A stretch of DNA of 42,123 nt from positions 1 to 42,123 of IMG/VR virus record IMGVR_UViG_3300030040_000052; one strand, given 5' to 3'. The notes under the pieces are model-generated. The model worked only from the letters and a program-made list of their open reading frames with translations, was not told where the DNA came from and searched no databases. The DNA comes from a virus. This document shows, piece after piece, positions 3,314 to 39,027 of the stretch (positions within the stretch are counted from its first letter, which is position 1; each line of letters opens with the position of its first letter). The translations under genes were made by a program, and so were the position numbers.

Positions 3314-3456
3314 CTATGCCGCCGGATGAACCCGCTCCCTTGCCGGCTGCAAGACCAGCCTAGCAGGGAAGCGCCGTTTCGTAAATAGCCAGATGTGGAA
3401 TATCGTTTCTTAGGTGAACCATTTTGTTTCAGCTTGTTTCCAAGGAGATGTTTTTT

Positions 3457-3900
3457 GTGGAAATTTCGGATTTATTGTCAGAGCTGGATGCCCTTCGCGT
3501 TCAGCGCGGGATGTCCTATCAGGCCGTTGCGGATGCCTGCGGCGTGTCCAAAGCAACCATTTACCGCACCCTGACCGGGGCAACGGAACCGACCGTTCAG
3601 CTGGTCAAGCGGATTGAGGCCGCCGTACAGTATGTTCCGCCCTCTGCCCAGCAGCCGCCACCTGCAAGCTGCTCCAAAGAAGAATATGCCGAATTTCTAC
3701 GGGAAACCATCATTCGCCAGGACGAAGAATATTCCCGCCATGTCACCCAGCTGCAAACCCACTATAGCCTTTTGCGCCGCCAGGACAGAAGGTCAATCGC
3801 GGTGCTTGCCGCAGCTGTCACCGTCCTGGTGATATTCCTGGTCGTCTGGCTTGTGCTGGACATCCTTCACCCCGGGGCTGGCTGGATTGCCACCCCATAG
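3457..3900 (+). CDS. Membrane-anchored HTH (XRE-like) regulator, about 147 aa
   Basis: GTG 3457 lies 9 nt after AAGGAG (track ATGs 3424/3448 lack spacing); MSYQAVADACGVSKATIYRTLTG HTH; C-terminal TM IAVLAAAVTVLVIFLVVWLVLDIL. Confidence 0.75.
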   Translation: MEISDLLSELDALRVQRGMSYQAVADACGVSKATIYRTLTGATEPTVQLVKRIEAAVQYVPPSAQQPPPASCSKEEYAEFLRETIIRQDEEYSRHVTQLQTHYSLLRRQDRRSIAVLAAAVTVLVIFLVVWLVLDILHPGAGWIATP

Positions 3901-3909
3901 GAGGCCGCC

Positions 3910-5040
3910 ATGAATTGTGTAAAATGTAAAAAAGCCATCCCGGAGGATGGCATCTTCTGCCCCTACTGCGGCAAAAAGCAGCAGCCGGAGAAAAAAAAGA
4001 AAAAGAAGCGCGCCAACGGTTCCGGCACTGTGATACGCAAACCAGGAAACCGCTCCAAGCCCTGGGAGGCGCAGAAATCGGGAATCTATGTCGGTGCCTA
4101 TGCAACAAAATACGAGGCAGAGCAAGCCCTCCTGCGGCTGGCAGACCTTCCGATTTCGGAAACGCTGAATTTAACTTTCGAGCAGGTCTATCAGAAGTGG
4201 CTGCCCGTCCACGCCCGTTCACTGACGCAGTCCGGCATCTCTGGATATGAATTTGCCTACGCCCATTGCCAGCCACTGTACGACAGGGTGTTTCGCCGAT
4301 TGCGTGCAAGTGACTTTCAGCAGGTCATTATGGACATGGAGGGGCAAGGCTTGTCAAAATCAAGTTGCGAAAAGGCCGTGCAGCTTTTTGGTCAGTTGTC
4401 AAAGTGGGCGATTCAGGAGGAGATTTGCCACACGAATTACGCAAAGTTTGTCACCGTCTCTGCCCAGCAGAAAAGCACAAAGCAGCCGTTCACCGCCGGC
4501 CAGATTGAATCAATCCTAAAATCCCCAGAGCCAGCCGCCCAGATTGCCGCAATCCTGCTTGCCACCGGCTGCCGCCCCAACGAGCTTTTCGCCGCCGCCA
4601 CCGCAGATGCCCAGGAAAGCTATTTCATCTCCGGCTCAAAAACAGAGGCAGGCAAAAACCGCATTATCCCGGTTGCCTCCTTTGGCCTGCCCGCCTACCA
4701 ATCCCTCCGAGCCGCAGCCATTGCCAGCAGCTGCACCAGGCTGATTGACGCATATGGCGGTAATAAAACCTACCGCAACTTTTATAAACGAGACTGGCAA
4801 AAGCTGATGGAAAGTCTCGGCATAGAAAACATGGCACCCTATCATTGCCGCCACACCTATGCCACTCTAGCTGTCCAGTCCGGCATAAAGCCTGAAATTT
4901 TGCAAAAAATTTTGGGTCACGCCGACTATAATACTACCGTGGGAGTATACACCCACCTGGATAAATCTGAAATACTCCAGGAGGCAGCAAAGCTCACGGT
5001 TACAGACACGTTACAGACACGAAAAAATCACCCGGTATAA
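3910..5040 (+). CDS. int: Tyrosine integrase with N-terminal zinc ribbon
   Basis: CVKC..CPYC ribbon, Lys-rich linker, GSGTV..KPW arm-binding-like segment, C-terminal HCRHTYAT...LGHADYNTTVGVYTHL (R-H-R-Y catalytic signature). Confidence 0.95.
   Translation: MNCVKCKKAIPEDGIFCPYCGKKQQPEKKKKKKRANGSGTVIRKPGNRSKPWEAQKSGIYVGAYATKYEAEQALLRLADLPISETLNLTFEQVYQKWLPVHARSLTQSGISGYEFAYAHCQPLYDRVFRRLRASDFQQVIMDMEGQGLSKSSCEKAVQLFGQLSKWAIQEEICHTNYAKFVTVSAQQKSTKQPFTAGQIESILKSPEPAAQIAAILLATGCRPNELFAAATADAQESYFISGSKTEAGKNRIIPVASFGLPAYQSLRAAAIASSCTRLIDAYGGNKTYRNFYKRDWQKLMESLGIENMAPYHCRHTYATLAVQSGIKPEILQKILGHADYNTTVGVYTHLDKSEILQEAAKLTVTDTLQTRKNHPV
4999..5020 (+). repeat. Two tandem GTTACAGACAC copies (putative P-arm integrase sites) inside int 3' end
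   Basis: 4999-5009 and 5010-5020; same 11-mer recurs twice at 5263-5285. Confidence 0.5.
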
Positions 5041-11771: not shown

Positions 11772-14700
11772 TTACCGTTTATGCCACGGCGCTTTTTTCA
11801 GGCCGCTTGCTGCATATCCGTTGTCATAGTACAGCGCATCCTTTTGGCTGTCGGAAATCGGAAGGCTGTTAATAAGGGAAAGAATTTCCTTCTTCTTGCT
11901 GCCGCTGTCCGTCTTGCCGTCTCCGTCTGCATCCACGCCGGTGCATTCCGTTCTTCTGCTTCTGTAGTCAGCAAACACATTCGGCTGAATCCCGGTTTCT
12001 TCAATGCTTTTGCCCAGCTCGTCAAGCTCTTTCGTGTACGCAAGAACCTGCTCGCTGCTCAAATCGGAATCCGGGTGCTGCTTTTGCCAGCGGTAGGCGT
12101 TCACAGTTTCTTCTGCTTCCTCCGCGTCCTTGCCGCCATAGCGCACAAGCGCATTTTTGAGCTGCTGTTCCGTGATTTCGCCGTCAATAAACGCTTCCTT
12201 CACTTCGCTGTAGTTTACGTCAAGGTCTTTCTTGCAGCCCCATTCTCGCACGGTTTTTTTTGCGGCATCTTCACTTTTTCCGCCGTACCGGACAAGCATT
12301 TGCGCCGCCTTACTCTCCGTCAGGCTGTTGTTCAGATAAGAATCTCGGATTTCATCGTATTCAATGCCGGTGTCTCGGACGCTGTTCCACTGCGTTACCT
12401 GTTCTTCTGCGTCCTTTTTTCGCATCCCAAGCACCCCGTTCAGCTGTTTGATGGCTGCTGTCCGGTCGATTTCGCCATTCAAATACTGTTCCTTTACCGA
12501 TTCCTTGCTGCCGCCGGGAACCTTCTTCAGCTGCTTTTCAAAGGCGCTTTGAATTTGCTTCCGGTTGAAATTCCCCTCGGCTTCAATTTCGGCAAGAATG
12601 CGTTCCGCCTCTTTCGCATTTCCAGCGGCCTTTTCCTTTGCCGCCTGCCGAATCCGGCTGTCCTGGTCTGCCAGCGCGGTCACAATGGCGCTTTCAAACT
12701 TCTGTTCCGTGGAATAAGTGGTTTTCAACCGTTCCTGTTCTGCCTGACTTCCATTCACAATGGCGTGGTAAAGACGCTCTGTTTTTCCGTTGCTCCCTCG
12801 GAAAATAGCGGGAATGTTTTCCTGAATCCCGTCCCAGATAGCCTTTCCTCTGGTGTAGGAATCGCTTGCTCTGGGTGTGGATACCGTTTCATAGGTGTTC
12901 TTTACCCCTCGCAATTCACGCAGAACATTCTTTAGCGGGATGCCGCCCATGTTCAGCAAACCGGCTGCCGCGTCCAGTGAAGCAATGCCGAATTTCCCCA
13001 GGTTCTCTTTCTTGGCTTCCTCGTCCTCCGGGTCTGTTTCCAGGAATTTCTTCCAGCTGTCAGTTGCTTTTTGGGTTGCGTTGTACATATCCGACACTAG
13101 ACTCATGTCGTTCCGCTCCACGTCATAGCCCTGGACGATGCTCCAAACATCCTTAAAGCCGGGGTAATAGGTGATTGGGTTTACCCCGTCCACCAGTTCC
13201 GAAGCAAGGCTGCTCAGATATTTTTCCAGATATGTCTTTTCTTCATCGTCATCCCGCGCAGCGTATACAAGGCTTGCCAACAGCGAGTTCAGAATCAGTG
13301 CCGCCGCAACCGAAGAGATTTTCTTTCCGGCGGTTTTGAAGTTCTTCCCGCGGATGTCCTGCACCGCACTGCCCATCATATTGATGGTGGTGGTAGGTTC
13401 CGCCATGAAACTTGTCAACATTTTCATGTAAACGCTCTTGCTTCTCATGTTGCCGCTTCTGGAAAACACGCTGTCATACACCTGGGTTTGGGTGATGCAC
13501 CTGGTAAAGAGCTTTCCTGCTTCCGTTTTCAGTGCCTCGCCGTTAAGCCCCGGGTGCTCTGCCTTGGTCTGCCGCTTGGCAGCTTCCCACATGGCAACCC
13601 ATGTGATTTTGTCCATCTGTTCCGGCATCCAACCGCCGAATTTGTCCACGGCGGCCATAAAGCTTTTTCCATTTTCCCCGGAAAGTAGCTCTTGGGTGCT
13701 TCTGCCCATGTCCGTGTCAAACCGCCCGATTTCCTTCAGGCCAACCACCGGCGCATATTTTTTCATTTCCTCCCAGGTTGCGGAAATTCCGCCCGCGCTG
13801 TCCACCTTGGAGCCTACGAAATACTTTGCATCGATGATGGAAAACGCCCGCCCTACCGCGCTTGGCTGCTGAATAGCCACGCTCAGGCTTGCAGATACCG
13901 CCGCCTTCTTGAATCCGCTCAAGAACATATTGTAAACGGTCTCCCGGTTATCTGCCCTTACGCCGCCGTTCACGTCCTTTAGGAAGGTGTCTACATAGTC
14001 CACCGATGCTTCCCCGTGTTTCCGCAGCATCTGCTGCCGGATGCCGTCACCGGAAGTGTTGTAGTTGTACACCCTGTAGAAGTCCTCCATGGGCAGCGCG
14101 AAGTTGTGATACATGGCTGTGTCGTTCACATGGTTTGCCCAGGTTTCCATAAAACCGCGCAGCTCCACAGCGTTGCTGGCGTTCTTGTCCGTGGGCTTCA
14201 TGTGTCCGGCATTTTTCTGGCGGTTGCCGGGGGATTCCTGACTGTCTCGCACCCGCTCAGACCGGATGGCGGAGGATTTAATCGGCCAGTAATCCTTTTC
14301 TTTTGCTTTGCTCACGCCATACAGTGCCCGGCTCACCTCGTTGTTCTGCTCGGCGCACACGGTGGAAAGATATTCCTGCATTTCGTTTGCAAAGGCAATC
14401 TGTTCCGCCGTCAGCCCAAGAACCTGACCGTTTCGGATTTGGATAACCGTTTCCAGCGCCAGAACGTGAGAGGAATAATCCGTGTAATCCTTGCCGTTCC
14501 GCTTGCTCCCGGTGAGAATAAAGCCTCCTTTCGTCAAGTGTTTGAGATACTGCTCCCGCTTCGATGCCGCATACAGGTTCATCCGCTCCTGCAAATCCAG
14601 CGCCACCTTTTCGCCGTCTGCCATTTCCACTTCCACCAGATTGTTTTCCCACTGGTCGAAGTGGTATTTGTCCATACACCCCAGCATAATGGCTCTTGCC

Positions 14701-17700
14701 TTTGCAAAGTCCCGATACCAGCCGTCCTCACCGTTGCGCAGGTTTTCATAGAGCTGCATCATAACGTTGCTTCCCATGCGCTCAAAGGCATAATAGGGCT
14801 TTTCGTTGTTCCAGCTCAGTTTTTCCATTGTTTTCTTTAGCTTTCCCAGCGCCGGTGTCTTGTCCGGCTGTTTTTGGAACTCTGCCATTGCTTGCTTGGC
14901 TGTCTCTGCCCACCCCTGCTTTAAATTTTCGCCGTGGAGCTTGTTTGCATTTCGGATGGTATTCAGGATAGCCGTATAAGCATTGCGAACTGCCTGTAGC
15001 TGCTGGATGTTCAGTTTACCATAGAAACTATCTCCAATGGCTTCTTTGGCATCGGAAATAAACTCAAGAATTTTGTCATTATATTCCTGGGTAAACACCC
15101 CCTTATTGACTTCCGCCAAATCGGTGTATGCCTGTTGCAGCCGCTCCAGGGCATTCTGAACCGTGGCATTTCGCCGTTCCAGCACATTTTGCAGCTTTGC
15201 TTCCGTCTCCGCAATGGCCTGGGCGTTCTTCACCGGGTCTTTCCCCAGCCGTTCCAGCTGTGCGCCGTACCGGGCGATCACTCGGCTGGCGGTCTCCTGT
15301 GCGTCCTGCTGCTTGATTGTAGCAATGGACTGCATTGCCATGGTCACCGCAGGCTGCAAGCTATCCGGCACATACAGCGTCTTTGTGGGGTTCAGCAGCC
15401 GCCGGTTGAGGTCAGTAAGCACCCGCTCCAGCTTAAAACGCTCCTCTGTCTTTCTGGCACTTTCCACCTTGGCCTTTGCCGCTTCCTGCTGCGCCTGCAC
15501 TTTCTTTTCCAGCCTGTCAATATTCCGCCCACTGGTGTCATACTCCCGCAACAGCCGCTTAAATTCCCGTTGCCAGATTGCAGCATCTTCCTCGGTTTTG
15601 GAAAGTTCTTCTTTGATTTTTTCAAGGCCGTTATCCTGTTCCCCGTATTTCCGCAGCAGACGAATAATTTCTTTGCTCATTGCCGCAATCTTTTCGGTGT
15701 AGCTGTCTTCTAGCTTATTCATTTCACGCTGGTGTGCGGTAGCAATCTGCTCCCGTTCGGCTTCATAAACTGCCTTCATAGCCTTCGCTTCCGCATCGCG
15801 CTGATAGCGGTAGTCAGAAAGCGCTTGTTCCACGGCTTTCTTTCCGTCCCTCCGTGCCTGTGCGGCCTCCTGAAGCGCCGCATTGCGCTCCTTTTTCAGC
15901 TTTGCGATTTCCTCTTTCAGCTTGTCAGAAACGCTCTCAACCGGCTTTGCATCCCAGGCCATTGCAACGATTTTTTCAATCAGGTCTTTTCTTTCCGCAT
16001 TTTGATAATATGCCGCTTCCATGTCAGATGTGCTCCTGCTGTCCTTTAGCTTCTGCACCAGTTCCGCAAGTGCTCCAGGCATATTCATATCGGAAAGCCC
16101 AGAATCAAACTGGTCTGCAAACTGCGCCGCTGCCTCCTGCCAGAACTGGTCAAGGATGGTGTTGGCATTCTGGTCAATAATAATGCTCCCGCGAATTGCC
16201 TTCTGAAAATCCTTTACGCTTCCATAGCTGTATTCAATTTCACCAATCTGTCCCTCACTCAGCCGCACACGCCGCTTTGCCATCCAGTCCAGCACTTCCT
16301 GGGCGTATTCATCCCGCTGTTCCTTCCGGTGCTCCTCCAACCAGTCAGCGGCTTTCCCGGCTCGTTCCTCAATCCCATCCCAGGACACATCTGCATCCCT
16401 GGAAATGTAGTTGTAGGTGTCTTCCAGCAGTGCTGCCAGTTCAGTGGTTCTGCCATTGGCGTTCCCCTCGCGGATAAGCCGCGCCGCCAGCTGGTTTAGG
16501 CTGTTTCTATCAAGGGTATAGTCTTTGTTGCCCCGCTTCTGAATCTGGACCAGCTTTTTCAAGTATTGGATTTCCGTCTCCATCCGCTCCATTTGCTCCT
16601 CGGCACTAACCCGCCGGGAGAAGCGAATGTTATCCATTTGATTTATTAGTTGCTGCCGTTGGGCTTCGTTCCCCTCCTCATAGAGCTGGTAGGGGATGCC
16701 AAGTTTACTTAGCTCCTCTAGTAGCCTCTGGCTTGCAGTATCAGGGGCGATTACATTCTTAATTTCATCAAATCCAACCGCCCGGGCAGGTTTCGCTTCA
16801 AAAATGTTCACAGGCATTTGAGAGATGTCGGAAAGAAGCTGTGCAACTTCTTGTGCCGTTTGGGAGTTTACTTCCATGTTGTACTTTGCAAATATACGCT
16901 GTACATTTTCCGGCGTATATCCTCTGCTCTCTCCAATTTCAGAAACGATTTCACCAATGCTATCCATGCGAATAAGCTCGTTGTCTGACCATCTGGATTT
17001 TGCGTTTGCTTCATCAATGGTGCTCATTAGCTTGTACAAACGGTTGCCAAGGTCATCCTGAATATTGCTTATTTGCTCATCGGTCAGATTTTGCAGCCGC
17101 CCTTCCAACTTGTGCATATCCGCAATGCTTTTGAACCGTTCTGATGTGGCAGCACGCAAAGTTTTTACACCGAAAAAACCGGATACATTTTTGGTGTTCC
17201 TGCCATTTTCAGACCGCATAGCCTTTACAATGCCTTCTAGCGTTGCAGCAATGTGTGTCTCCTTAAAAGACCGCCGTCCTCCAGATGGAGTATACCGTTC
17301 TTTCCCATTGTACACACCCTTACTTTTTTCTACGCCGCTGAAAAGCTCTTTTACCCATTCTGCAAATGCGTCCTTGTCAATAGCGGAGTCAACATTCTTT
17401 TTCATAGTTTCGGCATCAACAGTGGTGTATGTTTCTGTCGTATTAGCCGTACCATTTAAATAGCTGCTTAGCCTTCTGAGCACACCACTCATGCGAACTG
17501 TGTTTTTTGTCATTCCGGGGTATGCCCTTTCAAGTTCAGCTCCATGCTCCTCAAGCAGCGTTTTCAGAGGAATATGTTCAAATACTTCCGGCTTTACATT
17601 TCCCAGAACATTCCACACGTTCAGCAGCTTATCTTCTGTCTCGTTGTTAATTGCATTTACAATTCTTTCTTCCTGCCTGGTTTCTTGCTCGATGTGCTTC

Positions 17701-20700
17701 CCTTGTTCCTCCAAGAAAGCAGCTTTCAGCGCATAATTGTTCAGTAGACTGTCAACAACGCCTTTTTCACCGCTCTCACGGTTTAGTCTGTCCTCAATAT
17801 CGTACCGCACCACGTCAAGGTCATGCTGGAAGTATTCGGCAACTTTCCCTTTTAGTTCACCCAGCCGGTTATACACTTTATCAGTTGCCTTTCTGTCTGC
17901 TTCATATTCAATTTTTGGAACCACAGGTGTCCACGCATCAGCAGAATATACCGCATTATAACGGCTCACTTTCGGGTCAATGGTTTCTTTGCCGAATACA
18001 ACAGTAATGTCTCCGAAATTGGTGTGAGGAATCCCCGCCTTGGTGATTGCAATACTCGGCATCGGAAAGCCGCCTAATTTCAGTGTTTTCAGGAACTTTT
18101 CTTCCGTCAAGTTATGAAGCGCAACAAGGGTTTTCTCCTTTTGACCGTTGCGGGAAGATTTTAAAGTGCCCTCCGGGGCGTTATTTTTTCGCCCATCCTG
18201 CAACTGGTAGTTCACCACCGCATCACTGGCGGCATCGGCAAAGGCGTTCAGCGCTTCTTCACTGCTTCGGATGGTGTCTCTTGCCAGCTGGGCAATGCTG
18301 CTGTCCGGGTTCAGCCCCCGGTAGGCTTCCTTCAGCCGTTCCACCAGCCCTTGCAGGAATTTCTTAATCTTCTCCCAAAGGCTCATGTCAGTCTGCTGCA
18401 ACCGTGCAGAAATCCGTTCCATTACGTCCGTGTCCGTCAGCGCCGTTTCCATCATCTCCGCCACAACCTCGCTGTATGCCAGGTCATTCAGTTCCTCGGC
18501 ACTCAGCTCCTTGTAGCCCTGCCGTTTCAGCGCTGCCGCCTTGGCGGCAATCAGCTCATTGACATTCACATCGGTTCCCACGGCTTCAAACAGGATTTCC
18601 GTAAACCGGTGGAATTTTTCAGGACTGAACTCCTCCACAAAATGGGTAAACTCATGGCTCAGGGCAAAGGCCATCACACCCTGACCGTCTGCACCGGCAT
18701 TCAGGTCAACCCAAATGCTTCCGTCCTCCAGGTAAATGCTGCCGTTTTCCATTCCGGCATTCCGTTCTTTTTCGGTGCTGGCATAAACGGTAATGTTCAC
18801 TCCCATTTCCGAAAGCAGCCGTGCCGCATCCATGCCGCTCTTTTGCTGCTCATTCAGCGATTCAATATTTTTGGCGCTGTCCTTCACCGTCAGGCTGCCT
18901 TTCTGTGCCGCGTGCTCTCCCCGGTCAATTGTCTGCTGCTTCTGCCGGTTTTTTGCCCTCTCGCTGTCTCTGCCAGCCTCCCAGGCAGTTTGCCGGGTAG
19001 CTTCATCCAGCCGCATTGCGTTGCTGTCCCGTCCTATGGCGTTCATGGCAACGCCGTTTCTGCCCGCGTTGTAGGCATCCAGTACTGCCACCGCGAAATT
19101 GGAATTGCTCAGTTGACTGTTTTTGGATGCTTCCAGAATGGTGTTTCCGGTCTGGGCATCAACCCCGATGGTTTCAATGGCCTTAAAAAGCCGCGCTGTC
19201 CCATAGCTGCCGAATTTCACATCCTTGGCGTTTACCTGTTTGCCCTCGTCCGTCAGCAGCACCATACCGCCGCCACCGGCGGAAGCAATTTCCGAGATGT
19301 TTACCGGGCTGCTGTCGCTGATAAGATAGCTCTGCCCTTCGGCTTCTTCGTCATAGTCAAAGCTGCTCCCATCCACGGATTGTTTACCCAGATTATACGC
19401 CAAATCCACCTGTCCAACAGTAAGAGAGCTAATCCCTTCAATGTCAGCAATGTCGATTCCTTCCTGCCCGGCCTTATAGGCTTTTGCCATCTCCTCCACA
19501 TATCTGCCTCGGCTCTGCCCTGGGTAATACATCTGCTCGATTGCAAAAGCGTGTTCCTTCCCAAAGATGCTTTCCGCCGCTTCACTCAGCTGGTCATGAA
19601 CCGCCGCTTTGGCGCTCTTTTCCGTTTCCGTCTCCCGCGTGCCGAAAATTTCCGGTGCCAGGGTATAGGTTCCGATATTGCGCACCCAGTTGCTTCCGCC
19701 GCTCTTCGAGCCAGCACGGCTGATGTCGTTCAGCAGCGTGTCTGTAATCTCCTGGTTTTGCGCCATAGCATACCGTTCCGACATGGTGAGTTTTTCACCC
19801 GTCAACTTTTTCACAATGCCGCTGGCAATCAGCCCCGGATTTTTCTCTGCACCCAGCTGCTCTGCTTGTGCTGCAATCGCTTCTGTTACATTGGAGACAT
19901 CCTGCTTTGTCAGCGCCGCAATGTTTTCCTGATAGATGTTGGTTAGCTTGGCGTAGTCGCTGCCCCGCTTGCCTAAATTCCCTTTTTCTGCTTTTGACTG
20001 TAATTTTGGAACGTCCTTATTTTTGGAGCCCAGCTCCACCGCATTTTTCAGAATTTCGTCATAGCTGCCGCTGTCCACCATATCTTTGCCGATTTTTCTT
20101 GCATCACTGGTGGTAGCATTCACAATGCCGCCAGTGCCGCCCATCAAGCCGCCGGAAACAGCGCCGCCGTAGAACGACCAGAACGTGTCAATGGCCTGGT
20201 TAATAAATGCCTGTTTTTGGGCTTCCTCCCGGCTCATCCCCCCCTGCTCAACAAGCGCCTGGATGTTGTTCCGATAGTCGCTGTTCTTTCCTTCCAGCAG
20301 GGCATCCGTAATCAGGTTTGCAATGTCCGAGGCCACTTCTTCGCTGCCTTCGTTCAGCGCCTGGATAAGCGTTTTCTTTGCCCAGTCGCGGAAACCGGTT
20401 ACGTTGCCCTCCAAAAACTGGCTTGTGAAGTATTCAATGGAATATTTCTCCGTGGCCGCTTCAATCAGGCCGGAGGCAATTGCGCCCAAGCCAATCTGTG
20501 TGCCGGAAGCGCCTTTTTCGTATAGCTCCTGCGCCCGCTGGCTTGCCGCAGAACTACCCATAATCCAGGTGTACCCATTTCCAAACAGCGTAGCACCCAA
20601 TGCGCTGTCAGCGCCGGACATAACCGCCTGATAGGTGTTTGCCGCCACCGCGCCCCAGAATGGAGAATCAATACTGTCCACAATCTCCTGCGCCGTAATG

Positions 20701-22358
20701 CCGCGCACGGTGTTTGCATAATCAGAAAGTTCATGCCCGGCGGAGTAGGGATTGAATTTTCCGGTAATGGCGCTGCCCACATCCGCCACAGCGGAGGAAA
20801 CGCCGCCAAAAATATTGGCAGGGACAGTAGCCGCATTCATAACCGCCTTGCCAATCGCACCGGATGTGCCGTAGGTAATCTCTGTGTTGTAATTTTTGAA
20901 ATCGCTGATTCTCTTGTCAAGGGTCACTTCCAAATCGCTCAGATATTGTTTGGCTTCGCCCAGTCCGTAACGATTCAGAAGGAAATAGTACATTTTCAGC
21001 TCGTTGTCGGCAAGCCAGTTGTACCGGCTGATTGAAGTACCGCTCAAAGCAGCCTGTGCGTCATATTCGGTTTTATTCGCAAGGTATCGGCTGACCGGGT
21101 CATTCCGCTCAACCAGCCCTTTTTCCATGCCTGCCTCAGCATCTTCCTGAAAACCGTCCATATACCGGTATGTTTCATACCGCTGTACCTTGTCTTCCTG
21201 CGCTGCAATCAGCCCGTTGCGTTCGCTGGCATCGGCATCATTTTTAAGATTGTAATAAGCTGCTTTTGCCGCATCATAGTTTTTCTTGGCGCGGTTATAT
21301 GCCGCCGAATATTGCGTAATATCTTCTCCGGTAGAATTTGCCATATTGTTTTGCGCATCTTCAAGCTGCTGCTGCGCCTGGGTAAACGCAAGATAGGCTT
21401 CTTCAATCTTCTGCTGTTTTTCTTCCTCCGCCGCGTTTTGTTCTTCTCCTGTGCTGTCAGCCTTTGTTGCCTCTTTTTTCGTCTGCTTCGCGGCATCGTC
21501 CAGCTGCTTTTTCGCTGCCTCAAGGTTTTTCTCGGCTTCCAGATACCGCGCCTCTACGCCGTCAAAGTCACCGTCTGGCACATTGTAGTAGTCGTTTTCC
21601 GCAGCCTTAAAGGCATCTTCCGCAGCAGCATATGAAGCTTTCGCCCGTGCAAGCGGGCTGCTGTAGTCAGTGGCACTGATTTCCGGTACACCACCCGGCA
21701 GCTGTGAACCAAGTGCCTGATACTGTTCAGTGAAGCGTTCCCACCGGGCTTTTGCGTCCGCATAGTCGCGGCTGTCCGGCTGATAGCGTTTCTGGGCATC
21801 CTCCCAGTATTTCCGCTCTTTTTCGCTCTGTTGCAGCAGTTTTGCCGCGTCAGTACGCAGTTTGATGGTTTCTGAACTTTCCTTTGTGCCGGTCACATCC
21901 TGGTTGGCATATTTCTTCGGCTCAAGCAGCGGACGTTTCGGCTTTTCTGCCTGTGAGCCTTTCAGAAGTGTGTCGATTTTGGAAATCCGTGTGCTGTTTT
22001 GCTGCCAAAGCGGGTCTTTGGAAGATAGCCATTTGTTTTCATTTTCCAGCTGGCTTTTCTCGTCTTGAAGAAGCAAAGCATCCTTATAGCTTTTCAGCTG
22101 CCCCAGGTAGTCGTTAATCCGCTGGTTCACCTGGGGTGTGCTTCCGGCTGAAAACTGTGTAGCGGTAGAAGGGCGGCTTCTTGCACGCAGCTGCTCTGCG
22201 TAGGCATCGTCCATGGATTTCAGTTTGGAAACAGCCGCCCGATCCAGTGTATTTGCAACAAACTGTTTTGCTTGGTTATATCGTTCTGAACCGCCGCTTG
22301 TCGTTGGCTTCGCCAATTGCTGTGCAACAAATTCTTCTGCGTTTTTCTTCCTGGACAT
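11772..22358 (-). CDS. Giant 3,528-aa internal-virion / ejection 'polyvalent'-type protein
   Basis: Uninterrupted ORF; ATG 22358 7 nt after GTGAGGG (track start 22364 is TTG); position between nozzle-like and fibre genes; Gly-rich hydrophobic block, HEFTH site, coiled coils, C-terminal repeats. Confidence 0.9.
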   Translation of the reverse strand: MSRKKNAEEFVAQQLAKPTTSGGSERYNQAKQFVANTLDRAAVSKLKSMDDAYAEQLRARSRPSTATQFSAGSTPQVNQRINDYLGQLKSYKDALLLQDEKSQLENENKWLSSKDPLWQQNSTRISKIDTLLKGSQAEKPKRPLLEPKKYANQDVTGTKESSETIKLRTDAAKLLQQSEKERKYWEDAQKRYQPDSRDYADAKARWERFTEQYQALGSQLPGGVPEISATDYSSPLARAKASYAAAEDAFKAAENDYYNVPDGDFDGVEARYLEAEKNLEAAKKQLDDAAKQTKKEATKADSTGEEQNAAEEEKQQKIEEAYLAFTQAQQQLEDAQNNMANSTGEDITQYSAAYNRAKKNYDAAKAAYYNLKNDADASERNGLIAAQEDKVQRYETYRYMDGFQEDAEAGMEKGLVERNDPVSRYLANKTEYDAQAALSGTSISRYNWLADNELKMYYFLLNRYGLGEAKQYLSDLEVTLDKRISDFKNYNTEITYGTSGAIGKAVMNAATVPANIFGGVSSAVADVGSAITGKFNPYSAGHELSDYANTVRGITAQEIVDSIDSPFWGAVAANTYQAVMSGADSALGATLFGNGYTWIMGSSAASQRAQELYEKGASGTQIGLGAIASGLIEAATEKYSIEYFTSQFLEGNVTGFRDWAKKTLIQALNEGSEEVASDIANLITDALLEGKNSDYRNNIQALVEQGGMSREEAQKQAFINQAIDTFWSFYGGAVSGGLMGGTGGIVNATTSDARKIGKDMVDSGSYDEILKNAVELGSKNKDVPKLQSKAEKGNLGKRGSDYAKLTNIYQENIAALTKQDVSNVTEAIAAQAEQLGAEKNPGLIASGIVKKLTGEKLTMSERYAMAQNQEITDTLLNDISRAGSKSGGSNWVRNIGTYTLAPEIFGTRETETEKSAKAAVHDQLSEAAESIFGKEHAFAIEQMYYPGQSRGRYVEEMAKAYKAGQEGIDIADIEGISSLTVGQVDLAYNLGKQSVDGSSFDYDEEAEGQSYLISDSSPVNISEIASAGGGGMVLLTDEGKQVNAKDVKFGSYGTARLFKAIETIGVDAQTGNTILEASKNSQLSNSNFAVAVLDAYNAGRNGVAMNAIGRDSNAMRLDEATRQTAWEAGRDSERAKNRQKQQTIDRGEHAAQKGSLTVKDSAKNIESLNEQQKSGMDAARLLSEMGVNITVYASTEKERNAGMENGSIYLEDGSIWVDLNAGADGQGVMAFALSHEFTHFVEEFSPEKFHRFTEILFEAVGTDVNVNELIAAKAAALKRQGYKELSAEELNDLAYSEVVAEMMETALTDTDVMERISARLQQTDMSLWEKIKKFLQGLVERLKEAYRGLNPDSSIAQLARDTIRSSEEALNAFADAASDAVVNYQLQDGRKNNAPEGTLKSSRNGQKEKTLVALHNLTEEKFLKTLKLGGFPMPSIAITKAGIPHTNFGDITVVFGKETIDPKVSRYNAVYSADAWTPVVPKIEYEADRKATDKVYNRLGELKGKVAEYFQHDLDVVRYDIEDRLNRESGEKGVVDSLLNNYALKAAFLEEQGKHIEQETRQEERIVNAINNETEDKLLNVWNVLGNVKPEVFEHIPLKTLLEEHGAELERAYPGMTKNTVRMSGVLRRLSSYLNGTANTTETYTTVDAETMKKNVDSAIDKDAFAEWVKELFSGVEKSKGVYNGKERYTPSGGRRSFKETHIAATLEGIVKAMRSENGRNTKNVSGFFGVKTLRAATSERFKSIADMHKLEGRLQNLTDEQISNIQDDLGNRLYKLMSTIDEANAKSRWSDNELIRMDSIGEIVSEIGESRGYTPENVQRIFAKYNMEVNSQTAQEVAQLLSDISQMPVNIFEAKPARAVGFDEIKNVIAPDTASQRLLEELSKLGIPYQLYEEGNEAQRQQLINQMDNIRFSRRVSAEEQMERMETEIQYLKKLVQIQKRGNKDYTLDRNSLNQLAARLIREGNANGRTTELAALLEDTYNYISRDADVSWDGIEERAGKAADWLEEHRKEQRDEYAQEVLDWMAKRRVRLSEGQIGEIEYSYGSVKDFQKAIRGSIIIDQNANTILDQFWQEAAAQFADQFDSGLSDMNMPGALAELVQKLKDSRSTSDMEAAYYQNAERKDLIEKIVAMAWDAKPVESVSDKLKEEIAKLKKERNAALQEAAQARRDGKKAVEQALSDYRYQRDAEAKAMKAVYEAEREQIATAHQREMNKLEDSYTEKIAAMSKEIIRLLRKYGEQDNGLEKIKEELSKTEEDAAIWQREFKRLLREYDTSGRNIDRLEKKVQAQQEAAKAKVESARKTEERFKLERVLTDLNRRLLNPTKTLYVPDSLQPAVTMAMQSIATIKQQDAQETASRVIARYGAQLERLGKDPVKNAQAIAETEAKLQNVLERRNATVQNALERLQQAYTDLAEVNKGVFTQEYNDKILEFISDAKEAIGDSFYGKLNIQQLQAVRNAYTAILNTIRNANKLHGENLKQGWAETAKQAMAEFQKQPDKTPALGKLKKTMEKLSWNNEKPYYAFERMGSNVMMQLYENLRNGEDGWYRDFAKARAIMLGCMDKYHFDQWENNLVEVEMADGEKVALDLQERMNLYAASKREQYLKHLTKGGFILTGSKRNGKDYTDYSSHVLALETVIQIRNGQVLGLTAEQIAFANEMQEYLSTVCAEQNNEVSRALYGVSKAKEKDYWPIKSSAIRSERVRDSQESPGNRQKNAGHMKPTDKNASNAVELRGFMETWANHVNDTAMYHNFALPMEDFYRVYNYNTSGDGIRQQMLRKHGEASVDYVDTFLKDVNGGVRADNRETVYNMFLSGFKKAAVSASLSVAIQQPSAVGRAFSIIDAKYFVGSKVDSAGGISATWEEMKKYAPVVGLKEIGRFDTDMGRSTQELLSGENGKSFMAAVDKFGGWMPEQMDKITWVAMWEAAKRQTKAEHPGLNGEALKTEAGKLFTRCITQTQVYDSVFSRSGNMRSKSVYMKMLTSFMAEPTTTINMMGSAVQDIRGKNFKTAGKKISSVAAALILNSLLASLVYAARDDDEEKTYLEKYLSSLASELVDGVNPITYYPGFKDVWSIVQGYDVERNDMSLVSDMYNATQKATDSWKKFLETDPEDEEAKKENLGKFGIASLDAAAGLLNMGGIPLKNVLRELRGVKNTYETVSTPRASDSYTRGKAIWDGIQENIPAIFRGSNGKTERLYHAIVNGSQAEQERLKTTYSTEQKFESAIVTALADQDSRIRQAAKEKAAGNAKEAERILAEIEAEGNFNRKQIQSAFEKQLKKVPGGSKESVKEQYLNGEIDRTAAIKQLNGVLGMRKKDAEEQVTQWNSVRDTGIEYDEIRDSYLNNSLTESKAAQMLVRYGGKSEDAAKKTVREWGCKKDLDVNYSEVKEAFIDGEITEQQLKNALVRYGGKDAEEAEETVNAYRWQKQHPDSDLSSEQVLAYTKELDELGKSIEETGIQPNVFADYRSRRTECTGVDADGDGKTDSGSKKKEILSLINSLPISDSQKDALYYDNGYAASGLKKAPWHKR
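11907..11939 (-). other. DxDxDG calcium-binding-like motif GVDADGDGKTD near giant ORF C-terminus
   Basis: Hand translation of comp(11907-11939). Confidence 0.5.
12075..12497 (-). repeat. Three tandem ~46-aa protein repeats in giant ORF
   Basis: VKEQYLNGEIDRTAAIKQLNGVLGMRKKDAEEQVTQW / IRDSYLNNSLTESKAAQMLVRYGGKSEDAAKKTVREW / VKEAFIDGEITEQQLKNALVRYGGKDAEEAEETVNAYRW. Confidence 0.7.
18642..18656 (-). other. Zincin-type HExxH (HEFTH) codons in giant ORF
   Basis: comp(18642-18656) = CAT GAG TTT ACC CAT, context AFALSHEFTHFVEEF. Confidence 0.6.
20085..20867 (-). other. Gly/Ala/Ser-rich hydrophobic block of giant ORF (about aa 500-760)
   Basis: e.g. VPANIFGGVSSAVADVGSAITG, GAIASGLIEAA, FYGGAVSGGLMGGTGGIV. 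Confidence 0.55.
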
Positions 22359-22368
22359 ATCCAAACCC

Positions 22369-32421: not shown

Positions 32422-32501
32422 GCTCCGTCACCCCCTTTTTCCCCATTGTATCAAATCACCATAGCGGGCGCTAAACCCCGCCGGTGTTCGCATTTTGTGA
32501 T

Positions 32502-32553: not shown

Positions 32554-32588
32554 TTGCATTGTATCACAATGTATGCTATAATCTAGAT
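32554..32588 (+). promoter_or_regulatory. Accessory-operon promoter TTGCAT-17-TGcTATAAT with palindromic operators
   Basis: TTGCAT 32554-32559, TATAAT 32577-32582 with TGc; palindrome CATTGTATCACAATG 32557-32571 spans the -35/spacer; ATCTAGAT 32581-32588 at the predicted start site. Confidence 0.6.
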
Positions 32589-32622
32589 GTAAATCAAAGG
32601 GGCGCGAAGCCCAGAAAGGGAA

Positions 32623-33192
32623 ATGAAAATGGGCACTTACAACGATTTTTATAACTCTGATTTGTACGATTACAACGAATTAAAAGAGAAGGCATTGGCC
32701 TTCAACGCCACCCAGGAAGACATCAATGCTTTGGGTGAATGGTTCAGCCGTCACGGCATGAGTTATTGGAACGGAGAATGCTTCCACGTGGATGCAGACC
32801 ACAACTTGTACCCCATCCACAAGGAAATCGGCTACGACGAATATGAATTAGTCGGTTATACCTTTTCCAGCTGGGACGAGCGCATTATTCCGCTTCCCAT
32901 GACCCCAGAAGAACGAGCGAAGTGGGAAGCGGAGGAAGAAGAAAGAATCCACCGTGAAAACATCGAATACATGACGGAAAAGAAAAGAAAAGAAGATTTT
33001 TTCATGAAAATGCCTGTGGGGGAGCTGGTCGAAAGATATTCCATCGGTTTTAAGCGGTTCCACAGCTCAAACGAATCGTCAATCAGCATTGGCAAACGGC
33101 AGCAGGCGCAGGAGGACGGCGCAGAAAACGCCATTTGGCGGCGTAGAAAGTCGATTAAAAAGTTTCTTCGGGAGAAAAATGCAGCAGAGTGA
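32623..33192 (+). CDS. Hypothetical protein A of accessory operon (187-189 aa)
   Basis: ATG 32623 or 32629 after GAAAGGG; AT-richer than backbone; acidic N-half, Lys/Arg/Glu-rich C-half; no motif recognised. Confidence 0.75.
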   Translation: MKMGTYNDFYNSDLYDYNELKEKALAFNATQEDINALGEWFSRHGMSYWNGECFHVDADHNLYPIHKEIGYDEYELVGYTFSSWDERIIPLPMTPEERAKWEAEEEERIHRENIEYMTEKKRKEDFFMKMPVGELVERYSIGFKRFHSSNESSISIGKRQQAQEDGAENAIWRRRKSIKKFLREKNAAE

Positions 33193-33236
33193 CTGCAATA
33201 ATGCTATCCCTATATTCAAAATCAGGAGGATTCTTC

Positions 33237-33674
33237 ATGGCAGAAAGAAAAATCAGCGGTACATTCACCGCCGTTCCGGGTGGATATTCTCGGAAACTCA
33301 GCGGCGAAACAACATTGTTTGTCCCATCGTTCTGCGCTTCCAGTTTCAACTCAGAAACCGGTGAGCTTTTCGGGTACGCGCCCGATTATGACGCGCTGGA
33401 GGCCGCAAAAACTCCCGCAGTCCAAGCAACCACCCCGGGCGTTTATTCCTACTGTTACGAGATGGAGCACGCCCCCATCGGCTGCGACTTTTCCGCCACA
33501 TTGTCATATTATGGGAAGCATTATTTTCTAACGCCTCTCAGTTGCAATCTTCCGCGGCTTCGCGGGCAAGGCATCACTTTTGACGAGCAACAAGGCGACT
33601 ATATGGTAACGCGAAAGGCGTTTGAGAAACTGAAAACGCAGTACCGCATCACGATGGAACATTGCCTTGACTAG
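33237..33674 (+). CDS. Hypothetical protein B of accessory operon (145 aa)
   Basis: ATG 33237 7 nt after AGGAGG (track ORF start 33189 lacks an RBS). Confidence 0.75.
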   Translation: MAERKISGTFTAVPGGYSRKLSGETTLFVPSFCASSFNSETGELFGYAPDYDALEAAKTPAVQATTPGVYSYCYEMEHAPIGCDFSATLSYYGKHYFLTPLSCNLPRLRGQGITFDEQQGDYMVTRKAFEKLKTQYRITMEHCLD

Positions 33675-33763
33675 TGGGACACTTTAAGGGGCTGCACCGT
33701 AAAGCAACCCCATTCCAGCGGCAACGCCGCCGCAATATTTCAAAATCAAGGAGGTTGAGATGT

Positions 33764-34645
33764 ATGGACGTAACAATTCACGGAGAGCAGGTTCGCATCA
33801 TCATTCCAAACGGCGCAGAGGCGTATATGGATTTAATTTTTGAATACGATGGGAAGATTTATCGCCGCGCCATCAGCAAAACGGATGGAAATGCGAAAAG
33901 TGGCTTCATGTTTTCCTGCAATGGCGGCAAGGCATGGAATTTCATTCGGACACAGGCAGCCCCAAAGCCGGTGTATATCGCCTATTTTCAAACACGGGAT
34001 TCCCTTCCAAACGACGATTTCCCCGGAATCGCAGGGCGGAAGCGGAAGCCGAAAAAAATTCACGTTCCTGCGCCGGAATGTGCTGTCATCAAGCCTGACG
34101 GCCAGAGAAAAGAATACACAAAAGACGAGCTTCTGGACTACATTGATTCCATCATAGACGATGACCTTTTCCATTTCAGGAAATACGGATATGCCGACAC
34201 CTATCAAGAACGCTACCGCAAAGCAGCGGCGGAATATAAGGATTCAATCGCAGCGGCGTTTACACCAGAATCTTTCCCGGAATTTCAGTGGGATTCAGAA
34301 ACAGGTCTGCCAGCTTCTCCGGCATTCAGCTGGGACGAGTACCAAAAGCAGGAGAAGGCAGCGCCGGAAGAAAAGCGTATGGTGCTCCATGGAACCGCCG
34401 GAACAGTGGTCAGGTTTAAACGTGTCATGTATACCTTGACCTGTGACATCAGCTTCCCGCCAAATCCGTCTATCTGCTACGCCTACCCCACAGCGAAGGC
34501 ATACCGCACCCATAAGCCAGATGAATTTTTTAATATCGTGTGGTGGAAAATGGATAAAAAAGAGCTATATCAGTGGGTCGAAAACGGAGATTTAAACGCA
34601 GATATATACATGGTCATCCCGGACGATGGTAGGGCACTTTGGTGA
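33764..34645 (+). CDS. Hypothetical protein C of accessory operon (293 aa)
   Basis: ATG 33764 9 nt after AAGGAGG; no motif recognised. Confidence 0.8.
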   Translation: MDVTIHGEQVRIIIPNGAEAYMDLIFEYDGKIYRRAISKTDGNAKSGFMFSCNGGKAWNFIRTQAAPKPVYIAYFQTRDSLPNDDFPGIAGRKRKPKKIHVPAPECAVIKPDGQRKEYTKDELLDYIDSIIDDDLFHFRKYGYADTYQERYRKAAAEYKDSIAAAFTPESFPEFQWDSETGLPASPAFSWDEYQKQEKAAPEEKRMVLHGTAGTVVRFKRVMYTLTCDISFPPNPSICYAYPTAKAYRTHKPDEFFNIVWWKMDKKELYQWVENGDLNADIYMVIPDDGRALW

Positions 34646-34665
34646 AATTAAAAGGAGGAATAAAA

Positions 34666-34806
34666 ATGCCTGATAAAAAATCAACATGCCTGACAATCCG
34701 CATCAGCGAAGAATTAAAAGAGCAGCTACGCCAGGCAGCAGAAGCGGAGAACCGGAGCATTTCAAATTTTCTGGAAATCATCGTCCGGCAAGCGCTGAAA
34801 AAATGA
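34666..34806 (+). CDS. Ribbon-helix-helix (CopG/Arc-type) DNA-binding protein, 46 aa
   Basis: Below track cutoff; AAAGGAGGAATAAAA-ATG; MPDKKSTCLTIRISEELKEQLRQAAEAENRSISNFLEIIVRQALKK fits the beta-strand/helix/helix RHH pattern. Confidence 0.7.
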   Translation: MPDKKSTCLTIRISEELKEQLRQAAEAENRSISNFLEIIVRQALKK

Positions 34807-34811
34807 CAAAA

Positions 34812-34845
34812 GGGAGGAGGCCAAAGCCCCCTCCCGATTTTTATT
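34812..34845. terminator. Bidirectional Rho-independent terminator
   Basis: GGGAGGAGGC-caaa-GCCCCCTCCC (one mismatch) followed by GATTTTTATTT; A-tract upstream gives a U-tract for the minus strand. Confidence 0.75.
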
Positions 34846-34930
34846 TGTCTCTGTCCTCCCGGCTGCCCGCCACCAGGCAGCACACCAGCAGGAACACCAC
34901 CCCGGCCAGCACCACACCCGCCACAACCAT
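34841..34930 (-). CDS. Possible 29-aa hydrophobic peptide MVVAGVVLAGVVFLLVCCLVAGSREDRDK
   Basis: ATG 34930 in TAATG overlap with preceding tiny ORF; GGGGGTGGA RBS-like. Confidence 0.3.
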   Translation of the reverse strand: MVVAGVVLAGVVFLLVCCLVAGSREDRDK

Positions 34931-38304: not shown

Positions 38305-39027
38305 TCACCTTGCCTTCCCGCCTCTGCAAGCCGCTGTCACCGCCACATTCGGCGGCACAATCCGGCGCACCTTATTGATAAAATGCCCCTCGTGACTGGT
38401 GGCGCTGCTGAGGTGCAGCAGGTAAATTTCTCTGCATTTTGATAAGTCCAGCGTGCATAAATATTCACACAGCACATTGATGTCCATATGTGTGTTTGCA
38501 ATTCTGTGCCTTGTTTTTTCCGGCATCTTCTCGCACCGGCTCAGAATTTCCGGGTCAAAGTTCGCCTCGATGGCAAGGATGTTCACCCCCGGGAATTTGT
38601 ACCGCAGGTTCACCGTGTCAGTGGCAAACACCAGCTTGTCCCCGTCCACCCGGCTTTGAATCAGAAAGCCCAGAGGTTCAGCGCAGTCGTGAAAAACCGC
38701 AAAGGGAACCACTTCCATGCTCCCGATTGAAAACTGCTCCATGGAGGCACACACAGCCGCCCCAGTGGCGTTTAATGCCTCTTTCGTGCCCTCACTCATA
38801 TAAACCGGAATGCCGTCCTTGATGACCTCCAGCGCCGCCTTGGCGTGGTCTTTGTGTTCGTGTGAAATCAGGCATCCGTCCAGCTCCGCAATCCTGAACC
38901 CCAGCAGCGTTTGCAGCGTTTTGTGGGCAAGCCCGGCCTCAATCAGGAGCCGGGTCTTGCTGTCACTGACGATGTAGGCGTTGCCGGCGGAGGACGATGC
39001 CAACGCCGTGAATGTCATATGGGACAT
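38305..39027 (-). CDS. MBL-fold metallo-hydrolase (putative recombination nuclease)
   Basis: HxHxDH motif ISHEHKDHAK; alternative start ATG 39018 in ATGA overlap with upstream stop. Confidence 0.85.
   Translation of the reverse strand: MSHMTFTALASSSAGNAYIVSDSKTRLLIEAGLAHKTLQTLLGFRIAELDGCLISHEHKDHAKAALEVIKDGIPVYMSEGTKEALNATGAAVCASMEQFSIGSMEVVPFAVFHDCAEPLGFLIQSRVDGDKLVFATDTVNLRYKFPGVNILAIEANFDPEILSRCEKMPEKTRHRIANTHMDINVLCEYLCTLDLSKCREIYLLHLSSATSHEGHFINKVRRIVPPNVAVTAACRGGKAR

Follow-up and report, generated by a model that had tools for sequence, protein, structure and literature searches.

It is an open question what the twister, twister-sister, hammerhead and pistol ribozymes and the RAGATH motifs do in bacteria, and the cause of association behind the 'genes associated with twister and hammerhead ribozymes' is undetermined (review PMC6765202); in the literature after that review we found no explanation of the link between ribozymes and genes. 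In this work we describe a compact case, a 2.3-kb cassette of four protein genes on the + strand of a 42,123-nucleotide (nt) phage genome (IMG/VR record IMGVR_UViG_3300030040_000052, analysed over its whole length and hereafter called the window), in which a RAGATH-5-type RNA hairpin directly follows the second gene. The cassette lies on the opposite strand, where the early/modification genes meet terS, in a temperate phage that probably comes from human-gut Clostridia.

In P22 immI and in the CopG system of pMV158, a minimal ribbon-helix-helix (RHH) protein of 45-53 amino acids (aa) acts at a symmetric site that overlaps the core promoter and so represses the strong promoter of its own gene. 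The regulators Aca1-13 are described as helix-turn-helix (HTH) proteins, and Aca14, described in 2026, is an RHH regulator of an anti-defence operon (bioRxiv 10.64898/2026.07.27.740549). In the pLS20 family of plasmids, operons of establishment genes are repressed by the RHH protein Reg_p576 (PMC8708921).

We read the cassette, with moderate confidence, as an autonomous, horizontally exchanged and autorepressed accessory operon of the moron type, belonging to the ribozyme-associated class, in which the counter-defence step is inferred. There is good support for the anatomy of the unit, but not for a role of its cargo. From upstream to downstream, the features of the cassette, including its open reading frames (ORFs), are as follows.

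32554..32582, + strand: promoter TTGCATTGTATCACAATGTATGCTATAAT, with a -35 element TTGCAT (32554-32559), a 17-nt spacer and an extended -10 element TGcTATAAT (32574-32582)
32557..32571, no strand assigned: perfect 6-3-6 palindrome CATTGTATCACAATG (CATTGT-ATC-ACAATG, 15 bp) between -35 and -10; candidate RHH operator
32600..32612, + strand: small hairpin GGGC-GCGAA-GCCC in the 5' untranslated region, just ahead of the ribosome-binding site; weak alone (z -0.36)
32623..33192, + strand: ORF1, 189 aa, acidic (isoelectric point 5.3) and soluble; 32629 is a possible alternative start
33237..33674, + strand: ORF2, 145 aa, member of an abundant and highly conserved gut-phage family
33675..33724, + strand: RAGATH-5-type RNA hairpin (Rfam RF02685), adjoining the stop codon of ORF2; candidate site of RNA processing
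33764..34645, + strand: ORF3, 293 aa, of three modules, N (33764-34048), M (34061-34372) and C (34373-34645)
34666..34806, + strand: RHH gene, 46 aa, minimal Arc/CopG/Mnt-type, the domain only; AGGAGG 7 nt upstream
34812..34846, no strand assigned: bidirectional intrinsic terminator with T-runs on both strands, common to the convergent - strand genes

Much of this layout had been read correctly in a first-pass annotation made from the letters alone, which recognised a terminal 46-aa RHH gene, three further ORFs with no motif, an inverted repeat in the promoter, a strong bidirectional terminator, a first gene richer in AT than the backbone and a position between terS and the modification genes. 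The most informative feature, the RAGATH-5 element with its link to ribozyme arrays, was absent from it.

The RAGATH-5 element and ribozyme-associated arrays

The hairpin covers the full length of the RAGATH-5 model and scores 47 bits, where Rfam sets the gathering score at 50; its E-value over 2.6 kb is 5.7e-6. It lies at the start of the 89-nt spacer between ORF2 and ORF3 and is also found 3' of ORF2 in the sister phages L017 and L139 (labels beginning with L denote related loci). Over 16 copies, four of the seven stem pairs covary, and the copy in the window retains all seven; a hairpin with the GCACCG..AAAGC loop, compensatory changes and a ribozyme-associated context are all present.

We collected 88 loci with homologues of ORF2, 87 of which could be evaluated for RNA downstream. 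In 82 of the 87 (94%), an RNA element lies no more than 40 nt past the stop codon of the homologue, and this element is RAGATH-5 in 51 loci and the twister-sister ribozyme in 31; two of the remaining five look hammerhead-like. RAGATH-5 and a proven ribozyme thus replace each other at one exact position, which suggests that RAGATH-5 marks a site of RNA processing; the near-obligate pairing with the ORF2 family likewise suggests that it does the job of the ribozyme. The loci themselves are long same-strand arrays, of up to 12 small genes in relatives, that contain twister-sister, hammerhead II, pistol and RAGATH-5 RNAs at the Rfam gathering threshold. With sequence profiles built from the Rfam matches we counted 139 copies of twister-sister, 142 of RAGATH-5 and 16 of hammerhead, all on the gene strand. 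In L009-L014, the ORF2-homologue loci for which we looked at the called genes, the arrays are on the opposite strand of a lambda-like phage lineage, with the packaging genes (including the small terminase where it was identified) on one side and sigma-like, DUF1064 and replication genes on the other. Given the RAGATH-5 element after ORF2 and the ribozyme arrays of the ORF2 homologues, we place the cassette as a compact relative among the ribozyme-associated gene arrays.

The usual downstream partner of ORF2, in 60 of 81 loci (including L009 8537-9502 and L014 2228-3259), is a family of 300-340 aa, here called the 321-aa family, which has a C-terminal GFRWSPR..AWQRQLT motif and no match in Pfam or in the Protein Data Bank (PDB). 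The window has ORF3 at the place where this family usually stands. We considered ORF3 as a divergent member of the family and rejected it by BLAST and by hhalign (probability 0.09).

Other RNA structures were seen in and around these loci. Past RAGATH-5, at 33718-33765 of the window, a GC hairpin (GCGGC..GCCGC) is followed by a hairpin that sequesters the Shine-Dalgarno sequence and start codon of ORF3, and the whole spacer between ORF2 and ORF3 folds with a z of -2.75. In L052 and L056 3432-3530, the spacer past the ORF2 homologue has a CUGACGA...GAAAC hammerhead-like core that was called neither by the Rfam gathering run nor by the profiles. Further Rfam motifs near the arrays comprise DUF3800-VIII RNA beside terS, D12-methyl RNA, abiF RNA and the pistol ribozyme (L009 2196-2262, L010 2457-2523, L049 163-225 and L029 1178-1214 on the - strand; L031 1706-1772 on the + strand), and L029, L035 and L049 also carry phage tRNAs.

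Promoter, candidate operator and terminal regulator

The promoter of the cassette is of the extended -10 type. Its presence, as first annotated, is borne out: TTG-N17-TGnTATAAT occurs once in the window and in none of 100 shuffles, and the cassette holds the sole copy of TGnTATAAT in the window. The description of it as near-consensus had to be dropped, as the -35 element agrees with TTGACA at only three of six positions, which is why a generic promoter scan skipped it. The annotated inverted repeat turned out to be a perfect 15-bp palindrome and is a candidate operator. The window's immunity region holds no copy of this motif, which argues for cassette-specific control. At the other end of the unit, the terminator fold at 34812-34835 has a free energy of -20 kcal/mol for the + strand and of -24.9 kcal/mol for the - strand (z -4.4 and -4.6), and none of 200 shuffles folds equally well.

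The 46-aa protein scores above the curated Pfam cutoffs of three RHH models, with 33.4 bits for RHH_5 (cutoff 26; E 3.7e-8), 29.9 for RHH_1 (20.5) and 23.5 for Arc (20.4), and it thereby belongs to the RHH superfamily. Its best PHROG matches are Arc-like repressors, its nearest solved structure is, weakly, Mnt, and it also matches the antitoxin families TacA1, ParD-like and RelB weakly. Its counterparts are 98% identical in L017, 67% in L001 and 61% in L103. BLAST gave no alignment between it and Aca14.

The same regulatory pattern recurs in nine cassette promoters, taken from the window and eight related loci of five phage lineages. All nine have a 17-nt spacer, six have a TGn-extended -10 element, and eight have a palindrome that lies within the core promoter or around it. 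In the three cassettes with this RHH protein (window, L017 and L001), the promoter holds (A/G)CAATG half-sites, inverted or in tandem, about 10 bp apart; the cassettes that lack it have different palindromes. A DNA-binding gene is often present at the 3' end and its type varies, the alternatives being an RHH-like C-terminal segment in a 143-aa fusion (L003), the 61%-identical RHH protein (L103) and a 117-aa HTH protein (L133 and L139). By analogy, this pattern of promoter, palindrome and regulator fits negative autoregulation by the terminal gene, as in acr-aca operons. A hairpin of the form GGGG/GGGC-loop-CCCC/GCCC stands at the place of the small hairpin in the 5' untranslated region in L017, L001, L003, L006, L133 and L139.

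The decamer CATTGTATCA occurs twice, 113 bp apart (32444-32453 and 32557-32566), in the divergent intergenic region between terS and ORF1, and on the - strand both copies read TGATACAATG, an extended -10-like element pointing to terS. The copy at 32444 was considered as a second RHH site and rejected; it is backbone sequence that is also kept in the sister L136, which has no RHH gene.

The nature of the terminal gene bears on two other readings. In the first, the cassette would be a switch like P22 immI, in which an Arc/Mnt-type RHH protein controls an antirepressor among ORF1-3 and with it the choice between lysis and lysogeny. The Arc-like PHROG matches and the match to Mnt speak for such a switch, as does the P22-type portal of the phage, and the arc-ant unit of P22 also lies away from the main immunity region. 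However, Pfam finds no Ant, Bro or KilA domain in ORF1-3, the RHH gene is last in the operon and not first, and the cargo changes wholly from one sister phage to another, as would hardly be expected of a core decision circuit; we consider a switch of this kind very improbable. In the second, ORF3 and the RHH protein would form a toxin-antitoxin pair, since the two genes adjoin and the RHH protein weakly matches antitoxin families. We give this reading hardly any credence, given that the 46-aa protein is without a toxin-binding tail, that no toxin domain was found with Pfam or PADLOC, and that neither the 293-aa protein at the ORF3 position in L139 nor the ORF3 homologue of L006 has an RHH gene next to it. 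Both readings were rejected on domain content and on the lack of a conserved pairing.

Variation among sister phages

The cargo at this site differs between phages whose TerL, portal and terS backbone is the same: the window has four genes, L017 seven, L001 six, L133 six and L139 seven. In L017 three extra genes stand upstream of the series ORF1-ORF2-ORF3-RHH, and comparison with the window shows a clean replacement between 32479 and 32664. L001 carries a long form of ORF1, a 96-aa gene corresponding to module C, other genes and the RHH gene last. The six genes of L133 include none of ORF2, ORF3 and RHH, and in L139 the ORF2 homologue is followed by the 293-aa gene, a zinc-ribbon protein and the 117-aa HTH protein in place of RHH. 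Furthermore, single genes are 80-90% identical at the DNA level to L006 and L018, phages with unrelated terminases and portals. The site is hypervariable, and these sequence relationships support the view that the cassette is horizontally exchanged.

L006 and L018 represent a third phage lineage, in which a truncated-looking serine recombinase lies beside the cassette (L006 5211-5981 and L018 3478-4263, both on the - strand). Their cassettes are placed between a GP3-type terS and the large terminase, and upstream of the promoter there are repeated TACGGTAAA motifs and a long stretch rich in G+C.

The cassette DNA found no similar sequence among 50,697 deposited phages, and a scan of 185,579 species genomes for the ORF1 family returned two tiny contigs only. 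The nearest TerL sequences are on unannotated phage contigs from human faeces, and no others matched; one ORF2 homologue was found in a Clostridiales metagenome-assembled genome.

The cargo proteins

Each of the four cassette genes is preceded by a Shine-Dalgarno sequence. ORF1-3 have no transmembrane segments and are mildly acidic, and the proteins of related cassettes are likewise acidic and soluble. No match to ORF1-3 was found in Pfam (Acr and Ard families included), PHROGs, NCBIfam or PADLOC, and PADLOC gave none at E<=1 for any of the four cassette proteins. Searches of the PDB with protein or profile sequences of ORF1, ORF2, ORF3, the 321-aa family and a family of about 95 aa described below returned nothing meaningful. 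The three ORFs are as lacking in known motifs as first annotated, and neither these databases nor the Foldseek searches back a specific anti-defence or defence identity for them.

ORF1 has an almost invariant N-terminal domain (aa 17-90) followed by a charged helix; its homologues form 40 clusters, some with a C-terminal extension of 120 aa. Its AF2 model has a pLDDT (predicted local distance difference test score) of 79, and Foldseek found no neighbour for it in the PDB. ORF3 is modular. Module M is known from stand-alone proteins of 91-114 aa and N+M from a 183-aa protein, homologues of module C stand alone as acidic genes of about 95 aa in L001, L003, L006 and L017, and there are ORF3 homologues of 201 aa without module N. 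An exhaustive HMMER search with ORF3 found its own modules only, together with a spurious cadherin/lectin protein. Family scans with about 36 cargo proteins from related cassettes yielded very little, namely matches to HNH/AP2-like and zinc-ribbon proteins, to an HTH protein and, once and below threshold, to ArdC-N. The last is the sole hint of a known anti-defence fold among the cassettes examined, a match of an array gene (L009 5436-5921 and L013 6727-7806) to the N-terminal domain of the anti-restriction factor ArdC at E 0.002 and 18.7 bits against a cutoff of 22.6.

The family of ORF2 has more than 150 clusters, some with more than 1000 members. Its predicted structure (pLDDT 94) is all-beta with two halves of about 70 aa each, and Foldseek found no significant match for it in the PDB and, in BFVD, uncharacterised gut-virome proteins only as neighbours. 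Weak BFVD fold matches to HepA/HARP-like proteins (E 0.03-0.5) were considered as an identity for ORF2 and rejected, as they are not significant. They nevertheless point towards a reading in which the cargo is no weapon against host immunity but takes part in DNA or RNA transactions of the phage itself (annealing, recombination or the handling of RNA, for example), with the ribozyme-type element simply tuning the ratio of products. The mean column identity of 76% that ORF2 keeps across lineages, unlike fast-evolving anti-defence genes, and its pairing with the conserved 321-aa family would also suit such a role. However, the same-backbone sisters L001 and L133 have neither ORF2 nor ORF3, and both genes are therefore dispensable for the phage cycle. 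We regard a role in the phage's own nucleic-acid transactions as unlikely, but as a live rival.

Placement in the phage genome

The window is the genome of a temperate phage, with an integrase and HTH repressors.

3910-5040, + strand: integrase
1884-2339 and 3424-3900, + strand: two HTH repressors of the lysogeny module

The lysogeny module has the same orientation as the cassette, which is the sole + strand block among the - strand lytic genes, and the AT skew agrees with this. On its left lie, on the - strand, a 153-aa terS-like gene, TerL and the P22-type portal; its neighbours on the right are a Dam methylase, a PAPS-reductase-like gene and an ORF of 62 aa that contains a long hydrophobic stretch. 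The GC content is 46.3% in ORF1, 47.9% in the cassette and 52.4% in the window, with ORF1 within the lowest 6.5% of windows of equal size.

This placement is what would be expected of a moron expressed in the lysogen, conferring superinfection exclusion or a new anti-phage defence, with the RHH protein keeping expression low and constant. The cassette runs with the integrase and repressors and against all lytic genes, a promoter and a terminator of its own together with atypical GC are the classic moron signature, and its presence varies among sister phages. On the other hand, PADLOC finds no match, there is no membrane segment or recognisable enzymatic domain, the proteins are small, acidic and unlike most defence effectors, and arrays of up to 12 small genes, as in the relatives, are unusual for a defence system. 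We consider expression as a lysogenic moron unlikely, if a reading to be taken seriously.

Elsewhere in the window, the structural region holds a single ORF of 3530 aa (11772-22364, - strand) with a PBECR5 nuclease domain (E 5e-50) and no annotation outside it. This domain is typical of giant 'polyvalent proteins', which are thought to be injected together with the phage DNA.

A model for the cassette

Based on these observations, we propose the following model for our preferred reading, the autorepressed accessory operon of the ribozyme-associated class. First, the strong extended -10 promoter would fire as long as no repressor is present. The RHH protein, made from the last gene, would then bind as a dimer to the palindrome or to CAATG half-sites in the spacer and shut the operon, and the output would be a pulse followed by a low steady state. 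The RAGATH-5 element past ORF2, in the position held elsewhere by the self-cleaving twister-sister ribozyme past ORF2 homologues, most likely marks a processing site that splits the transcript into an ORF1-ORF2 mRNA and an ORF3-RHH mRNA, and the bidirectional terminator would close the transcription unit. Finally, the small, soluble, mostly acidic and modular orphan cargo most likely acts on the host soon after DNA entry. A part for this cargo in counter-defence or host takeover is plausible. In favour of an early role of that kind are the pulse-type logic, the hypervariable, modular, acidic and soluble cargo, and the placement beside the packaging start.

Several points weigh against the model. 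The score of the RAGATH-5 element is 3 bits under the Rfam gathering score, and a run over the whole window at the gathering threshold did not report it; moreover, we know of no demonstration of self-cleavage for RAGATH-5. The CATTGTG core of the window site is also present in the promoters of the HTH-type sisters, and since it is common to phages with a different regulator, a factor encoded by the backbone could be the real binder. Early expression is a step that we infer, and the orientation of the cassette, being that of the integrase and repressors, fits expression from the prophage equally. The conservation of ORF2 (76% column identity) is unusually high. The cargo proteins have no likeness to any known anti-defence protein in Pfam, PHROGs, NCBIfam or the PDB, and the recognisable genes of anti-defence type in the relatives, namely Lar, an AcrVA2-like gene and a weak Apyc1-like match, are on the other, lytic strand, outside the cassette.

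The anti-defence-type genes on the lytic strand are found at L018/L019 1366-2382, L006 14812-15081, L133 7946-8185 and L001 14314-15027, all on the - strand. The protein with the weak Apyc1-like match has a metallo-beta-lactamase fold, and a 240-aa protein of this fold is encoded at the corresponding place in the gene order of the window (38305-39027, - strand).

It is tempting to extend the model to the class as a whole. We would speculate, with little confidence, that the ribozyme- and RAGATH-associated genes are autonomous, opposite-strand, self-repressed entry operons beside the packaging start in phages of gut Firmicutes, of which the cassette would be a minimal form, that self-cleaving RNAs, or RAGATH-5 as an equivalent processing site, cut the transcript into individually stable mRNAs for interchangeable counter-defence proteins, and that the unit that is shuffled is a gene with its 3' RNA element. 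If this were true, ORF1, ORF2 and the three modules of ORF3 would be new families acting in anti-defence or host takeover, and RAGATH-5 would do the work of a ribozyme in its stead.

The main value of the cassette is that of a minimal model with which the question of ribozyme biology can be tested. One promoter, a candidate operator, a repressor, RAGATH-5 and three cargo genes, all within 2.3 kb, make the unit directly testable, and the near-obligate presence of a twister-sister or RAGATH-5 RNA 3' of the ORF2 family offers a concrete handle on the ribozyme arrays. Should the cargo act in counter-defence, the cassette and its many relatives would be a large reservoir, so far unused, of new anti-defence proteins encoded by gut phages; should it not, the cassette would still be a clean example of accessory genes autoregulated by an RHH protein.

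Comparison with known systems

The first-pass annotation had likened the cassette to acr-aca operons, and the likeness holds for the architecture. The strong promoter, the inverted repeat over the core promoter, the small orphan cargo, the DNA-binding gene in last place and the hypervariable locus are all shared. Membership of that class finds no support: the cargo has no homology to Acr proteins, the regulator belongs to no named Aca family, and no link to CRISPR was found. Even Aca14, the one RHH protein among the Aca regulators cited here, is a protein of 67 aa with an N-terminal helix, whereas the RHH protein of the cassette has 46 aa, is without that helix and has no detectable similarity to it.

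The Reg_p576 system resembles the cassette by description, in that an RHH repressor on a mobile element of Firmicutes governs the transient expression of entry genes. It differs in being a plasmid system, in which Reg is encoded separately and controls several promoters. P22 immI and CopG are similar in the size of the regulator and in its symmetric core-promoter site; in contrast to them, the cassette has neither an antirepressor nor replication-control cargo, and its RHH gene is last, not first.

Among phage accessory elements, the cassette shares with the morons of Hendrix its own promoter and terminator, a lower and atypical GC content, and presence in some and absence from others of a set of collinear genomes, all of which we found here. 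Unlike those morons, it is multigenic and has its own regulator and an internal RNA element.

A further close relationship is with the ribozyme/RAGATH gene arrays (Roth 2014; Weinberg 2015; via PMC6765202). In the family of ORF2, 94% of loci have a twister-sister or RAGATH-5 RNA 3' of the gene, the RAGATH-5-type hairpin of the cassette stands at exactly the family position, and the phage setting, near terminase, DUF1064, methylase and sigma-like genes, is alike. The cassette differs from these arrays in having a single RNA element, with a score just under the Rfam gathering score, in drawing only one of its four genes from ribozyme-rich arrays, and in closing the unit with an RHH gene and a terminator. 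With its orphan cargo families, the element thus adds to two known kinds, the autoregulated accessory cassette and the RAGATH/ribozyme-associated phage gene array.

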